Positions 17,950 through 36,700 of a stretch of 64,000 nt of DNA are shown piece by piece. The stretch's first letter is position 1; each line of letters begins with the position of its first letter. A model generated the notes under the pieces. That model saw nothing but the letters and a program-made list of their open reading frames with translations, was not told where the DNA came from and made no database searches. The position numbers were made by a program, and so were the translations under genes. Source of the DNA: Chloropicon primus (taxonomy: Eukaryota); contig CP060759.1 in NCBI GenBank assembly GCA_023205875.1, forward strand, positions 372,001 through 436,000, in the 5' to 3' direction.

Positions 17950-20280
17950 GGCCAACCCAACCAATGAGGGAGGAGGTGATCGCTTGACGACGCAGAAATG
18001 ATTGCAGTTTCAGTTTCAGTTACAACTTCAGTGTAGCGAATGACTCGTAAATCCGCGAGCTCTTACAGGAATCAGATATTCCTCGCAGTGAAGAGAGCTT
18101 TGCGCAAAGAAACTTGGATTAATACTGCGACCAAACAGTCTTGACGCCGGTGCGAGCAGAGATGAAAACCTACCGTAAGAGCTTGAGACGAACATCGCAA
18201 TCTCATAAGTGCCCCGTAAAGAGCACGAGGAAAGATATTTCCAAACGCCCAATCCCATCGTGCGTCCGTTTCAAAACAACACGTGATGTTTCTTTGGATG
18301 GATATCCCTCACCTTACTCAAGGGGCGAGTACTCAGGTCAGCCTTGCAAAGCAATCGATTGCAGGCGATCGATTGCAGGCGCCTTCTTCAGAAACGAGTT
18401 TAGGTTTTAGGAAGGGAGAGAGATGAAGCGGATAAAACAAGCAAGTCATGCTTGCAATACAATGGGATAGGGAAAAATGACTGCTCTCCCCAAAACAATT
18501 TATCAATATTCCACGTTCCATTCTTTCGCGATTACAGTCACTAGAAGCTTTCTGCCAGGCCTCCCTTAAAAATGATACTTTATTATGCTGTACCATCGCT
18601 AATAAGTACTTTAGCATTTTTCTTGAATCAACTTTAAAAAAGCAGCGCGTAATTTCTCAAGTGTTTTGTCTTGCTTTATGTATACAAGTAGTGATGTACG
18701 TTTAAAAGGGGCGTGTATTGGTAAGCTGCTTGTTTTGAAAAAGACATAAAATATGAATTGCCCACAACCATAATGTTTTCTTTTAACAGAGCTCTCATAA
18801 ATATATCAATCATTTTCGTGATGTTGCCCACTCAACTGCAGAAAGATTGCCTGATCTCATGTCTTATTGAGTTTGCCAACACGTATTTACATGGTTCTCT
18901 TCTGATGCTATCGATCAATCAAACATGTTTGAATTGTGAAAACATATTCCAAGTCGATAATTTCTCTGTCAAGCTATCTTGATCATTTTGGTTTACGCCA
19001 TCAAAGTCATTAAAGCGACAAACATATTTTGCAAACTGACAAGGTATACTATTCCTCTCCAATATGTTTACGTGAAGAAGAATATATGATGTGTGTTATC
19101 ATGTTCATCCCATGACCAGATAAAAGCCTTCCTTAAAGTTATATATATATATTTATTTATGATGTTTTTTTTCCTTTCAGTGGTCAGTTTAATACTTCAT
19201 TATGAGCAGGTGATTGCTTCTCAAACCGTTTTAGCTCTTTCGGATTCAAAAAAATCCAGAACCTGAAAGTAATGCCCGCTTCAATTGATTGTTGAGCCGA
19301 TCAAAATCACTAACAATTGTCGCTATCAATATATCACCGTTTATTGTGATTTAGGCACGAAAACATCGATATGTTACAAACCACTACAAAACATTCTTTA
19401 TATTTTGCACTTGAAACTAATATATATAACAGCACAACCATTCGATGTTAATATCATTCAGAAATAAATATAATTCCAAAACCAGATGGATTATGGGATA
19501 TTATAGGCGTGCTTCCACACCATGTCCCTGGTTTGGGGACTGTGCTTAACACGCGTTTAATGTAGACCATAAGTAACCCAAATAACTTAATTTTCAGTTA
19601 CTTTGTACGGAATGTCAATAAAATGGAAGCTCTTTTGCTACTTCTGTTTCAAGATTATTCCGGTTCTTTGTGGGGAGAGCGAATGTCCCTTGTGCTACGA
19701 TATATCGCATTGCCGTGACCTGTTGCGTCACAAGAAGTACTTTTGCTTACCATTTTAGCCTCTCTGCATCACAACTAGCTATCAGGAACTGAAATCAATC
19801 GTAATACCCATACATATTTGCTGTGCAATTTTCTCCTTTCCCCATTTGCTTTCTCGCCATTTCCCTTTCACGTAAGACTTTCTCTGCTCTGTGAGGGTGC
19901 GGGCACCCTTGGAATGAAAAACAGTTTAATGGAAAGTTAGCAAAGAGCTAGGGAACGAAGGGTGAGTTAGCGCACTTTGTGCATAGGGGAATATGAATAC
20001 GAATCAAGTAATATTTTCTAGGGAAAGTTTCTCTGTGGCTTACGGACTTTATCGTCTCGTCTCGGGTATAAAGATACCCCCACTGGTCCCTTTTCCCACT
20101 GCTACAATGTCTCAGTCTCAGTCTTTCTGCTCCTCCAGACAATGATAGGTTGGGTTGTTCAAATCAAACACGCTCCTTAAGAGTCCTAGGTTGGCCCCAG
20201 TCCTGGAGCTCGAACTTCGCGAGGTTGACCGAGCTGCATCTCCAAGAAGCTGCAACAAATTTTGATAAAGTTACAAATTA
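17950..20280. other. AT-rich island with no recognisable long ORF
   Basis: Visibly much lower GC than flanks (e.g. atatatatatatttatttat at ~19141); only short ORFs in the six-frame track. Confidence 0.8.
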
Positions 20281-30631: not shown

Positions 30632-30704
30632 GTGAGGCCAGGCCAGGCCAGGCCAGGGACGACCGCCATGAATCCAGCAAGCTCGTTTGTTGTCCCTCTA
30701 ACAC

Positions 30705-30708
<4 letters not shown>

Positions 30709-30747
<39 letters not shown>
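30709..30747. repeat. (CA)n microsatellite
   Basis: Seen directly. Confidence 0.9.
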
Positions 30748-30749
<2 letters not shown>

Positions 30750-31172
30750 GTCCTATGTTACAATATATTACTATCTATCAGAACCGTTGCGCCCGGGGTG
30801 CGACTTGGGTGGGCAAGGGAACCTCTACCCCTGCGTCGCCCAACGTCAACCTTTGCCCCCCCCCCGTCTCACACCTCCCAGGCCGCTGTGAGACCGCTGA
30901 GAGACTCTGTTGTCTGTGTGCGTGTGCGTGTGCGTGTGATAAAGGCAGACAAAAGCGATGGCATTGCATCCCTCCCTTCCTCTTCCTCTCGGCATCCAGC
31001 GGTGCGATCTGTTGTTATGGTGTTCAGACATCAGATCAAAAACAGCACACAGAAAAGTCACGAAAGGACGGTAGGGAATTCACAGTCAATACTGGAAGCA
31101 CAAAGGCAAGTTCTCCTTTCCACTGAAAGAGAGAAACACGGAGAGAAACACGAGGCGACCGGCCACTACTTA

Positions 31173-31326
31173 CCTGTTAGTTTTCTGCAAAGGTCGTTTC
31201 ACCGAGTTTGTAAGTTTCTCGGCAGGGTAATTCAGCCCTACCACGACCATTCCACCGTACATGAACGAATACTTCCGCCCACGCACGGCAGCCCGTACTA
31301 ACAAACGTATGTGCAACCCTGAGGAG
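31173..31326 (-). ncRNA. Candidate Fanzor omegaRNA scaffold
   Basis: Minus-strand 15-18 bp hairpin with many G-U pairs, a three-way junction, and a closing stem TGTTAGT/ACTAACA immediately after the nuclease stop. Confidence 0.7.
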
Positions 31327-33491
31327 TTACACACTTTTTGGTTGACGCAAGTGCTTCAGGAGGACGTTGCGTGCCCCGTTCACATCCCGACCGCACTTGA
31401 AGCCACACTTCTGGCACTTGTACACCTCTGCTCCACCCAGGTTCTTCTTGATGTGTCCGCACCTGCCACAGGTCTTGGAGGTGTACTCCTCCGTCACGAT
31501 CGCCAGCTCACTGCCGTGCAAGAGCACCTTGGAAGCCAAGAACGTTCTGAACGCATAGTGCCTCAACGTCAAGAGCGTGCGAGCCGTCTTCTTCCTGATC
31601 ACTCGGCGTCTCCCGTTGTTGTTCTTCTTCACCATGTCTTGGGACTTGAACTCCGGGAGGAGGATTGTGTCGAACCTCCTGCATAGATCGTTGGCTACCT
31701 TTTTGTGAAGCTCGTTCGTCAGACCTCGAAGTTTCTCCATGCAGGCGTATTGCTGTCTCTTCAAGTCGCGGCGGTCGAGGTAAGGGAGCTTCACCTTTGG
31801 GTCTTTGCGCTCGGAAATGATCTCATCAATCCTCCAGCAGAGGTTGAACAGCCTCGCGAAGCCTCGCTCGCCCGTGGCATACTCCCCGACGCCTTCTTGC
31901 GGCGAGTACGACGTCTGAAAGGTCCTGACTCCCGGATCCAGGGCGACAACCTTCCGCTTGTTCTCAGGCTTCAGGGGTGGCAGGCGATCCCATGGCGTCG
32001 CGATGGGAATGTATGTGGAACTGCCCAAGGCGATTTCTTGTGATCTTCACGGCACCCTCGATCTTGCCCCCGGGGATCTCCTCCGTCAAGTACAGGGGCC
32101 CGCCGGCCATCTTCTCCTTGAACACCTCCAGCTTGGTCCACTTGCGTCGTTTCTTGTGCTTGTTGTCATCCTTGTGTCTCGTTCTCGGTCTTTCGATCGT
32201 CTCCACGTTCTTTAACTCTCTTGCATCAATTTCAATAGTCCAAGAACTCGGTTGCTGACGTTGACGATACTTGAGAACGAAGCGGTGCCCCTTCTTCTCG
32301 CCGCGCTCCTTCATCGCTTCCTGCTTCGCGGTGTTCGAATCCCATGCCTTGATGAGACTTCGCACGGCAGCTTGTCTGATGGCACAGGGGGTTTCCTTCA
32401 GCCAAGGATGCTTCTGATTTACAAAGGCCCCGCTAACGTAGTCCCGGTCCTTGGCCACTTCGGCGCGAAATCGTCTGCCTCCAATTTGGCTCTCGAGTCT
32501 CTTCTCTCTGGCCGCGAAAAGCTCTGCCTCCTGTTTTGTCCATGGCCGTGGAGAGCATTGGATTTCTTTCAGCTCTTTCTCCAGCCCCTCAAAGACCTCA
32601 GGGCGTCGCGGTTTGGCCGTCACAAATCTGTCCAGCAGGACGGTCCAAACCAGCGGAAAACCCTCCTTCTTGACCGCCTCCAAACACTTGTTGTATGTGA
32701 AACGCGCAGCTCCCATCCAGTTGCAAAGGCATTGCGCCTGCTCAGGGTTCAAGCGCATCCTCACCTTCCTCGTCCGTATCACCGTTCGCTCCGACAATAG
32801 CTTGGAGGTCTTCAGTTTCTGCTCCCTCTTCCTTTTGGCGGGCGACTGCAATGTCTCGACGGATACCACAGAATCTTCTGGAAGGTTCAAGCACGACCTC
32901 CATCCCGTCTTCGGACACTTTACCTCTACAAGTTCTCTCTTGATCGATGAGAACCAGGTCTTCTTCACGCTGTCGTCCGCCAAGCCACCCGGCTGCTTCC
33001 CTGCTTTCTTCCCCCTCTTGTTCTTCTTCTTCTTACCCTTCTTCTTGTTCTTCTTCTTACCCTTCTTGCGAGGCTTCTTGCGAGGCTTGCCTGACGAGCT
33101 CGAACTCTCACCCGCAGAGGCGTCCGCCTCCGGCCGCTTCCCCTTCCGCTTCCCCCCGCTTCTTGCGAGGCGTGCTCGAACCCTCCTCGAAAGCAGAGGC
33201 GGGGTCGTCCAGCGGCTTCCCTTCCGCTTCCCCCCGCTTCTTGCGAGGCGTGCTCGAACCCTCACCCGCAGAGGCGGGGTCGTCCGCGGGAGGAAGCAGA
33301 CACAACGCGTAGAGCAACTGCAAGCCCTGATTCCAGAACGGAAGTAACGGCCGCTCCGTCGTCGGAGACTCCTGCCCCGACTTCGAAGCGCCCTGAGCAT
33401 GACTCTCGCCAGAGTGCGACCTCCTTGTGGAACTCGTCGAGCCACTCCCCTGCTTCTCCTTTTTCTTACGGCGCTTCCCTGATCGCGCCAT
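31327..33491 (-). pseudogene. Fanzor2/TnpB-family RNA-guided endonuclease, ~720 aa when two frameshifts (~33140, ~32014) are corrected
   Basis: PFWN...WFS N-terminal motifs; RTRKVRMRLNPEQ...WMGAARFTYN; RuvC-I ALDPGVRTF; ILLPEF; EEYTSKTCGRCG...CQKC; RuvC-III RDVNGARN. Confidence 0.9.
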
Positions 33492-33741
33492 GACTGTTAG
33501 CTGCTACTGCAAGGGTTTCACTCGCTGCCCTCCTCGTAACTCCTCGTAACTATAGATTTGCCTTGTCCAGCAAGTGAGAACACGAAAAAAACGCTTTGTG
33601 GGTTGTCCTTTGGGTGTGACCAAACTGGTATACACTGGAATCCCACCAACAGGGGAAAACCTCCAACATCTGTCCCAGACCGAGGGAGTGGAGACGGAAA
33701 CGGGGCAGGGGAGTCCAGCGCGTTACGATCGAGCGAGCGCC

Positions 33742-36700
33742 ATGGCGGACACTGCGACGATGGAGCAGTTCAAGGAGGGGAGCCTCGTGTGGGTGAAGGC
33801 CACGACAGTGCCCGGGTCCTCGCCCGAGACCTTGCCGTGGCTCAAGGCTCGCGTCGCGTCTTCCGCGCGCAACTCCTCGCCCAACGAAGAGGGGAGGGTG
33901 GAGGTGGAGGTGTGCGAACACTCTGACCTCGCGGATATCTTCGCCTTCGAGCCGGGTTCGTTCCCTTCGCAAGGGACGCGAGCGGAGGTCGACGCCGCTT
34001 CTCTCAGGGCGCGGACGGAAGGGGACAGCATGGTGGAGGACCTCGTGAACAGTGATATCCTGCACGAGGCGTCCGTGCTGAAAACGCTTGGACTGCGGTA
34101 CATGTGCGACGACATTTACACGTACACGGGGTCGATACTCATAGCGGTGAATCCGTTCAAACCTCTGAAGTCTCTTTACGGGCCGAGCATGATGAAGCGG
34201 TACTACAACACCTTCTTGGGAGAGTCGAGCCCCCACGTGTACGCCATCGCAGAGCAGGCGTACAAGTCCATGCTCATCGACGGTGGGTCCCAGTCCATCC
34301 TGATATCGGGGGAGTCAGGAGCCGGGAAGACGGAGACGGCAAAGCTCGTGATGCAGTACCTCGCGATGAGGCACACGCAAGAGTCCCCGGGGAGGAGGGA
34401 GGCGGAGGCGAGCGAAGCGGGCGCTCCCCCGGTGCAGTACAAGGACGAGCAAGGCCAGAGTGTCTCGCCCTTCACTGCAGGGCTGATGAGGAAGAGGAGG
34501 AACAGCAATCCCGTGGAGCAGCAAGTTCTGCAGTCGAACCCGCTCCTGGAGGCCTTTGGCAACGCGAAGACGGTGAGAAACAACAACTCGTCGCGGTTTG
34601 GAAAGTACGTGGATCTCAAGTTCAACAAGAGGGGGCAGATCCAGACGGCCCACATCCAGACCTACCTGCTCGAGAGAACCCGCGTGGTCCAGGTGTCTAC
34701 ACAGGAGCGCAGCTACCACATTTTCTACCAGCTCTGCAAGGGTGCGTCAGAAGAGCAGAGGGAGATTCTGCACTTGAAAGCCTGCTCTGCATCTGATTTC
34801 TATTACCTTTCCTGCAGTGAAGTTCTCGACATCGAGGGCATGGACGATGCAGAGGACTTTCGTGTGACGCAGAAGGCCATGTCGATCGTGGGCATTTCCG
34901 AAGAGGAGCAGCTCGACGCCATGAAGGTTTTATCGGCCGTCCTCCACATCGGCAACATCAAGTTCTCCGATGCTTTGGAGTCGGACAGCGCTGTCATGGA
35001 TGGCTCGATCGTGAAGGATGAGTGCGAAAGGCATCTCAAGGCAGCTGCGAGCCTGCTGGGCGTGCCCAGCGATGATCTTGAGCAGGCCCTCACAACGAGA
35101 ACGATTGTGGCCCCGGACAGCACTTACAGGAAGGGCTTGTCCCCAATGGATTCGGCCAAGGCCAGGGACACCTTGTCGAAGACCCTGTACGACAAGCTTT
35201 TCAACTGGGTTGTTGAAGCTGTCAATAAGAACATGGATTCCAATGAAGGGGAAACATTGTCCATTGGTATTCTTGACATTTATGGCTTCGAGCACTTCAA
35301 GAAGAATGACTTTGAGCAGCTGTGCATCAACCTCGCCAACGAATACCTGCAGCAACACTTCAATTACCAAGTGCTGAGTTACGAGCAGGAGGAATACACG
35401 AAGGAGGGGATCGATTGGACGTTCATTGATTTCAAGGACAACCAGGATGTTCTTGACATGATAGTGGGCACGGGGGGCAAGAAGAAGCTGAGCGCAATCA
35501 TGCCTATTTTAGATGAATGTTGCCGGCTGCCGCGGACAACTGCAGCAGATTTCTGCCATTCGCTGAAGGACAAGCTTGGGGAGAACAAATCATTGGTGTT
35601 TCACAAGAAGTGGCCCCACTGCTTTGAGGTTAGGCACTACGCGGGGGAAGTGCTTTATGAGACGACCCAGATGATCGAGAAGAACAAGGATTACATCATT
35701 TTTGAGCACAACGCTCTGGCAAAATCGAGCGAATCCAGTTTCTTCCAAGCGTTATTTCTCGCGGGACTGGAGTCACAAGAATCGAAGAACAAGACGTTCA
35801 TTCTGAGGACGGTGTCGTCGATTTTTTCAAAGCAGCTGAAGTGCCTCATGGATGACCTTTGCAAAACAAACCCGCACTACATACGATGCATAAAACCAAA
35901 CTACAGCTGCCTGCGCGGTACGTTTGTGGCAGGCTATGTCCACGAGCAGCTGGCGTACGGAGGGGTGATGGAGGCAGTTAGGATCTCGAGGAGTGGCTTC
36001 CCCTCAAGAAAGGTCTTTGTGGATTTTGTCTACCGATACGAAATTCTCTTGGATGCGAAGGCAAGAGAAAGGTGTGAGGACGCGGATGAAAAACATGTTA
36101 CGGAGCTCATACTGCGCACGCTGAACCTGGAGAACAGGTGGCAGGTCGGGAAAACAAAGGTATTCCTCAAAGAGGGCGTCGTTCCCATGCTGGAAAACAA
36201 GAGGAACGCAGTCCTTTATGATGCGGTTGTGTGCATCCAATCTACATTTAGGACCTACCTTGCTCAGAAGGAGGCGAAGGAGAGGAAGGAAGCCATCGTG
36301 AGGATCCAAAGCTGCTGGAGGAGAGAAATGGCGAAAAGAAGATTTGAATCCGTGAGGATCGATAGAGCAGCGACTTTGCTCCAGTCCTGGGCACGGATGC
36401 TTCCTCTGCGGCAAGCATTTATTGCACACAGGAGGAACCAAAAGGCGATCGTGATCCAATCCTTTGTGAGAAGCTACTTCGCGAGGCAGCGGAGCGAAGC
36501 CGCAAAACTCGTCCTGATCAGACAGAAGAGGAAAGCGGCCGCTGTAACGATTCAGAGCTTCTGGAGACAGCTCGAGGCAAAGAAGACGTTTGCAAGGATT
36601 AAAGCAGAAGCGGAGTATCTCCAGAACATGGAGACGGAGAACGAACGCCTCCAAGAGCGAGTCAGGGAGCTCGAAGCCTACAAGGCCTACAAAGAGGAAG

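Follow-up and report, generated by a model that had tools for sequence, protein, structure and literature searches.

In IS607-type TnpB and Fanzor2 systems, the end of the omegaRNA scaffold is also the end of the element, and the flank serves as the guide. ISXfa1, ApmFz2 (9B0L) and two loci recovered in this work, L016 and L017, resemble the locus analysed here, from the marine green alga Chloropicon primus, in combining a DPG motif and a shifted glutamate in RuvC with a scaffold downstream of the ORF; the scaffold's 3' end reads AAC-GG in L016 and L017 and GAACGG in the tested ISXfa1. In our locus, by contrast, the flank lies 161 nt away from the scaffold end, TnpA is dead and the GG reads AG. 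A closer relative has been reported from the same species: the Chloropicon primus Fanzor2* of Yoon et al. (2023, PMC10711439) belongs to the same protein family and, according to the accessible text of that article, sits between degenerate terminal inverted repeats (TIRs) with a variable 5-nt target-site duplication (TSD) and no transposase. That text makes the TIR and TSD part of the scaffold and does not mention splicing, whereas here the scaffold ends 161 nt before the TIR.

Two further systems couple mobility to splicing. In IStrons, as far as the accessible text of two reports goes (bioRxiv 2023.11.20.567912; PMC13565253), one end serves mobility, splicing and the omegaRNA, as we suggest here, but splicing there opposes the guide, whereas in our locus spliceosomal removal of the arm alone would make it. 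Introners likewise have a donor within the element and an acceptor predicted from the insertion site; they remove themselves from host mRNA, however, whereas here the intron would sit in the element's own transcript. Our copy is intergenic and, with 161 nt separating its donor from the right end, is not a whole element spliced out of host mRNA, and of the splice signals it carries a donor and a branch motif, with the acceptor only predicted. Among the titles and opening lines of abstracts in the Fanzor and TnpB literature, mostly outside subscription journals and with figures excluded, we found no splice-made guide RNA. Thus the TIR/TSD element is already known, and the splice-donor arrangement appears to be undescribed. 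We tentatively propose, as a reading towards which we lean without being able to call it probable, that the scaffold ends at a splice donor 161 nt inside a TIR transposon, that the spliceosome removes the intervening arm, and that the host sequence following the acceptor AG becomes the guide.

The window, by which we mean the entire 64-kb stretch of DNA analysed (64,000 nucleotides), contains one copy of the element, with no second copy found within it. The features that define the element are as follows.

31013..33668, minus strand: non-autonomous Fanzor2* DNA transposon with termini TGTT...AACA, placed by a depth step, an empty-site joint, contig ends and published insertions
31008..31012, no strand: target-site duplication, right-end copy, including the first AG past the arm (31010-31009 on the minus strand)
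33669..33673, no strand: target-site duplication, left-end copy, placed from contig data and coordinates
31327..33491, minus strand: Fanzor2 ORF, with its stop at 31327; full-length copies encode about 723 aa
33253..33438, minus strand: decayed IS607 serine recombinase (TnpA), a dead relic whose frame overlaps that of the ORF, with a stop inside the RLC motif

These limits carry an uncertainty of 1 nt, because the duplication can also be read as 6 nt. Contigs from four of 21 listed sequencing runs bear on them, two from DNA (X1 and X8) and two that we guess to be from RNA (X5 and X6). In X1, repeat-level depth persists to about 31012 (2345.6 at 31165 versus 129.6 on the unique flank, as summed contig depth and not copy number), one contig represents the empty site by joining 30989 to 33668 with the duplicated bases present once, and there is a loose end at 33668; X8 contigs end at 31013 and near 33674. 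The accessible part of the supplement to PMC6731263 (Suppl. Data 8) holds three heterozygous insertion rows of the element, of 2.66-2.71 kb, two showing the whole right arm and one the left end, and the available text of bioRxiv 2023.08.09.552727 gives a 5-nt, highly variable TSD for the Chloropicon Fanzor2*. Our element has degenerate TIRs and a 5-nt TSD, carries Fanzor2 only and encodes no transposase; it is the published Chloropicon TIR/5-bp-TSD Fanzor2*. An IS607 element would instead have an intact serine recombinase TnpA and GG crossover ends without a TSD, where this one has a TnpA relic with a stop and a 5-bp TSD.

Since the element extends to 31013, positions 31172-31154 lie inside it. 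The preliminary description had taken those positions for a guide supplied by the flanking DNA and had expected conservation among copies to stop sharply at 31173; they prove instead to be the start of a 161-nt arm common to copies, present at repeat-level DNA depth to about 31012 and carried by the published insertions. At the DNA level, therefore, a plain flank-derived guide at that position is excluded.

Several other observations concern the element and its surroundings. Just past the right end, at 30961-31007 of the window, the filled and empty alleles differ, with 37 letters in place of 17. Directly 5' of the Fanzor ATG, the stretch 33494-33522 (minus strand) resembles the last 30 nt of the scaffold, with a similarity score equalled by 9 of 2028 window tiles, and other copies vary here; judged by this resemblance, it is possibly a relic of an IS607 left-end repeat. 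Further away, 18001-20000 is a low-GC block (0.37-0.41 versus about 0.57) without any 100-aa ORF inside.

The ORF contains Cas12f1-like TNB and HTH_OrfB domains and, although frameshifts near 33151 and 32012 set it apart from other copies, keeps intact the Fanzor2 signatures given in the accessible text of PMC10711439, namely DPG at RuvC-I, a glutamate six residues before the zinc finger and the third RuvC aspartate. By these sequence features, its product family is Fanzor2 nuclease, with the cleavage function assigned by analogy. Because the window copy is frameshifted, its RNA could act only with the protein of another copy. The closest proteins, with 97-99% identity, bear the name 'putative IS605 transposases' in Chloropicon primus, and one cluster of them has 46 members, while the best PDB match of the ORF product is ApmFz2 (9B0L, E 5e-21). 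A member of the same protein family, UPR03652.1, is listed in Table S3 of Yoon et al. 2023 (PMC10711439), and the available part of Suppl. Data 6 of PMC6731263 gives 25 genes of this kind, with RNA-seq depth >20 for 22. The TnpA relic was detected by tblastn with the L016 TnpA at loose settings (E 0.012), a match that is weak alone, and its position corresponds to that of TnpA in L016 and L017.

In those two relatives, TnpA overlaps the Fanzor2 N-terminal extension in a different frame (501-1214 in L016, 1303-1869 in L017), which points to a possible origin of the extension. Within the N-terminal region of the window copy, a unit of about 76 bp is triplicated at 33086-33289, overlapping the dead TnpA motif, and its copy number differs among element copies. 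In the REC region, a survey of 188 proteins shows an L-x-x-x-F motif residue that is Arg in 18 of the 44 motif-bearing proteins, Leu in 20 of 20 Chloropicon proteins and Met in relatives with 67% identity; this residue difference may mark a change of TAM. We do not equate the residue with R194 of ApmFz2, for which the mapping of TAM residues by profile alignment proved unreliable. In three annotated gene models (P0004, P0135 and P0146), different predicted donors close to the stop codon link the Fanzor with host exons further downstream; these fusions are probably prediction artefacts.

Directly after the ORF lies the structured RNA around which our argument turns, composed of the following parts.

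31174..31330, minus strand: omegaRNA scaffold, a 5' hairpin at the stop codon plus a multiloop shut by a conserved helix (z -3.88)
31313..31330, minus strand: 5' hairpin overlapping the stop codon, absent from the preliminary description, predicted by folding and matched by hairpins in the corresponding position of L016 and L017
31297..31305, minus strand: closing helix, 5' strand, pairing with 31174-31181
31252..31291, minus strand: long G-U-rich hairpin (arm 1), predicted by folding, its base helix kept by wobble changes relative to L016 in a hand-anchored comparison
31192..31248, minus strand: arm 2, a GGUCGU/ACGACC helix with inner hairpin(s) of uncertain branching, the helix having positional counterparts in L016 and L017 (hand-anchored)

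The scaffold's 5' start may extend into the last ORF codons. The preliminary description had proposed a structured RNA that folds well only on the Fanzor sense strand, and this is borne out, with the minus strand of 31173-31326 reaching -58.6 kcal/mol (z -3.72, equalled by 0 of 200 shuffles) and the plus strand only z -0.31. Across 30700-34029, in 54 sliding windows on 2 strands (108 folds, 30 shuffles each), the lowest score belongs to 31180-31329 on the minus strand (z -5.18; runner-up -2.5). The long hairpin at 31255-31288 is as had been claimed, with 15 bp, 5 G-U pairs and an extension to 18 bp, and 14 of its 15 pairs have a probability of at least 0.93. The proposed three-way junction holds in part: its helices are present, but the bases 31222-31221 belong to both inner hairpins, which therefore cannot both be complete, and while a trimmed junction folds at -59.9 against an MFE of -60.4, GGUCGU/ACGACC and CCGAG/CUCGG have a probability of about 0 in the fold of 31173-31326. 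The closing stem is similarly missing from the MFE of 31173-31326, yet it forms when the fold begins at 31306 or 31330 and is kept in both relatives. By eye, we found no 3'-terminal pseudoknot pairing consistent across the three scaffold sequences. A search of 30900-31500 against Rfam returned one match at chance level (E 4.6) and no notable match to a group I intron ribozyme, and the remainder of the element is almost wholly ORF.

The identity of this RNA rests on its relatives. A metagenome scan yielded, from 181 candidates, the two loci L016 and L017 (56% and 55% protein identity), in both of which the reading frame of a Resolvase-family TnpA overlaps that of the Fanzor N-terminus, so that both are IS607 elements. 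Their predicted folds comprise a stop-codon hairpin and a multiloop shut by GUURGU/ACYAAC, followed by GG; the closing helix is kept in both, with one A-U to G-C change, and both scaffolds end AAC-GG. From the GG onward, L016 continues into an epoxide-hydrolase-like reading frame (E 0.007), that is, host flank; this frame has no Pfam match and its PDB matches are weak. That two IS607 relatives keep the architecture and end AAC-GG identifies the window RNA as the corresponding scaffold: a structured sense-strand RNA directly after the ORF and kept in relatives (three sequences, one clear compensatory pair), it is, judged by fold and ancestry, a Fanzor2 omegaRNA scaffold.

It departs from the described types in two respects, as its end (31174) is not the element end (31013) and as the arm and TSD, far from being folded into the scaffold as in Fanzor2*, are predicted to be unstructured. 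The two U that pair with GG in the relatives pair with A31175 and G31174 in the window, a shared register that puts the scaffold end at 31174 (three sequences, with arms anchored by hand), where it coincides with the exon end of the donor described below. An omegaRNA scaffold ending about here had been anticipated, and agrees with the ends of L016, L017 and ISXfa1; the anticipated end at 31173 is displaced by one base, and the splice-donor motif there had gone unremarked.

We left out of these comparisons the pair counts from MAFFT and RNAalifold, which misaligned the 5' part of the three scaffolds, and, for covariation, 80 distant prokaryotic loci. In a tree, the window family, L016 and L017 fall in one well-supported clade of unresolved inner order. 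Among viral contigs, alignment A1 gave 15 distant relatives and alignment A2 gave none from 145 candidates, and a scan with the scaffold motif returned 31 loci, none of them near a Fanzor. A homology between the right arm and the DNA downstream in L017 was also considered and rejected, its score being reached by 4 of 500 shuffles but by 122 of 1432 window tiles.

At the scaffold end, the sequence takes on the appearance of an intron, with the following predicted parts.

31168..31175, minus strand: splice-donor motif AG/GUAAGU, its exon end (31174) being the homologous scaffold end
31013..31173, minus strand: unstructured right arm, predicted intron of 161 nt, including 31154-31172 and present at repeat-level DNA depth
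31030..31034, minus strand: the arm's one CURAY motif, a putative branch point some 20 nt short of the element end
30989..31008, minus strand: predicted guide of the window copy, on the assumption that the acceptor is the first AG of the flank

AG/GUAAGU is the consensus 5' splice site. This 8-mer occurs three times in the 128,000 strand positions of the window (both strands), with GTAAGT occurring 12 times, and it is kept in both published copies (2/2) in which the arm is visible. The arm shows no sign of structure (z +0.27 for 30988-31173). AG is missing between 31092 and 31011, that is, for 82 nt ahead of the element end, and the first AG falls in the TSD; with the sole CURAY near the tip, this leads us to expect the acceptor from the insertion site. 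Neither property is rare alone, as AG-free runs of such length cover 5% of window bases and CURAY occurs 1.7 times per kb. Two AGs inside the arm follow pyrimidine tracts and have no branch motif upstream; we rejected the corresponding internal mini-introns (acceptors 31123 or 31092), of which there is also none among the joints listed. For comparison, an intron of a host gene in the window, which we take from its protein sequence to be CK2-beta, opens with this hexamer too, and its CUGAU precedes the AG by 40 nt; the branch-to-AG distance in the element would be 24 nt against those 40 nt, in the single host intron checked by translation. Both relatives have GGU at the boundary, so the GU could have arisen without selection for splicing.

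Evidence that the donor is used comes from X5 and X6, which represent two studies and two organisms. Neither has depth over the left end (33564-33674) or more than a little on the unique flanks, and X6 depth climbs towards the 3' end, as expected of RNA. In X5, a contig of 1028 nt departs from the element at 31173 and continues for 46 foreign letters, a complex sequence, not poly(A), that has no exact match within the window; the match includes G31173, and one shared G fits a next exon beginning with G. In X6, the main unitig, of depth 282, stops at 31174, beyond which the genomic continuation has a depth of just 34, the residual bin depth implying about 243 in branch contigs, although contig depth is a poor measure of quantity; depths at 31148, 31165 and 31234 confine the extra contigs to the donor junction. 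The DNA contigs of X1 and X8, in contrast, run through 31173. Donor use at 31174 is thus likely, supported by the X5 and X6 contigs, and the acceptor is a prediction: among the contigs listed for these two runs, none supports one at the flank AG. Counting against a simple splicing picture, X6 also contains an internally deleted derivative (joint at 32893), in which the 5' part of the ORF is joined to the right arm and which, with GG/GUAAGU, is unspliced at a depth of 363.

The fuller account, which we put forward with more reserve, is of a spliceosome-assembled guide in which the old IS607 end became the donor, the arm the intron and the insertion site the source of the acceptor, with the TAM changing from GG to AG to match. 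The ancestor would have been an IS607 element bounded on the right by the scaffold end; in an order that we infer, it would have lost TnpA and acquired new TIR ends. Expression of the family is published; transcripts would extend past the ORF, across the scaffold and arm, and on into the flank, and splicing would proceed from 31174, via the branch motif near the tip, to the first AG of the TSD or flank. By analogy with TnpB and Fanzor biology, the Fanzor of an intact copy would bind and trim this RNA and might cut the flank sequence beside an AG-ending TAM, resulting in homing into empty alleles.

The main weakness of this account is self-targeting, because the filled copy retains both TAM and target. 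An AG at the start of the TSD would avoid it, since the preceding base then differs between filled and empty sites, much as CGG versus GGG tells empty from filled sites in ISXfa1. AG begins the flank in two of the four insertion sites seen, and one of the four TSDs lacks AG, where two of the sites come from noisy long-read rows and one TSD is inferred; in the window copy, the AG lies deeper in the TSD. The filled and empty alleles of the window site agree over just the first 10 bases of the predicted guide (30989-31008), and the divergence that follows in the predicted target could reflect ordinary polymorphism or a scar left by repair.

Splicing at 31174 might, however, be real and serve just mRNA 3' end formation or guide neutralisation, the scaffold being a recently stranded relic and the Fanzor a passenger. 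We regard this as unlikely, but it accounts for the departure of the contigs without any self-targeting problem, suits an element without a transposase gene and gains from the 97-99% likeness of the copies, at which intact motifs need little selection. It explains less well why TnpA has decayed whereas the scaffold helices and RuvC motifs persist, and why the donor coincides precisely with the homologous scaffold end while the sole branch motif lies at the element tip.

Alternatively, it is the unspliced RNA that acts, its guide (31172-31154 or 31173-31155) being internal, fixed and common to all copies. The idea is doubtful, as is its corollary that the target would be an empty TIR element or another repeat, like an IS607 inserted into a MITE. 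The start of the arm is indeed common to copies, the GG-T at the boundary in both relatives makes a register at 31173 possible, and the X6 derivative has GGG ahead of this sequence. Yet the supposed guide differs among copies at 31165, lacks any further target in the window (12 nt, <=1 mismatch), and is bypassed by most of the X6 depth, which departs at the donor; nor is a left-arm/right-arm joint, as an empty MITE would give, among the two joints listed for the four runs.

A scaffold of about 320 nt that takes in the TIR and TSD, with the unspliced flank after 31008 as guide, is what the accessible text of PMC10711439 states for Fanzor1 and Fanzor2*, and X6 depth does extend over the arm tip (114 at 31052). 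This we consider quite improbable here, given that the arm is unstructured (z +0.27) and the conserved closing helix stops 161 nt short of the element end, and the same text gives no data for Chloropicon primus. Very improbable, finally, is that the departure at 31174/31173 reflects older IS607-type or truncated copies, or cleavage and polyadenylation, for although the RNA nature of X5 and X6 is a guess and the X5 match includes G31173, X6 branches between 31174 and 31173, ahead of the second G, the DNA runs continue through this point, and the foreign part of X5 is complex sequence rather than poly(A).

The question behind this work is how TnpB-type nucleases kept a programmable guide in eukaryotic transposons that had acquired new ends. 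The published answer is that the new ends were recoded into the scaffold. If our proposal of a splice-made guide is true, the Chloropicon element would represent a second, eukaryote-only route, in which the transposase-binding end is spliced out. The scaffold boundary at 31174 would be usable for reprogramming the Chloropicon Fanzor2, of which the genome holds about 25 copies.
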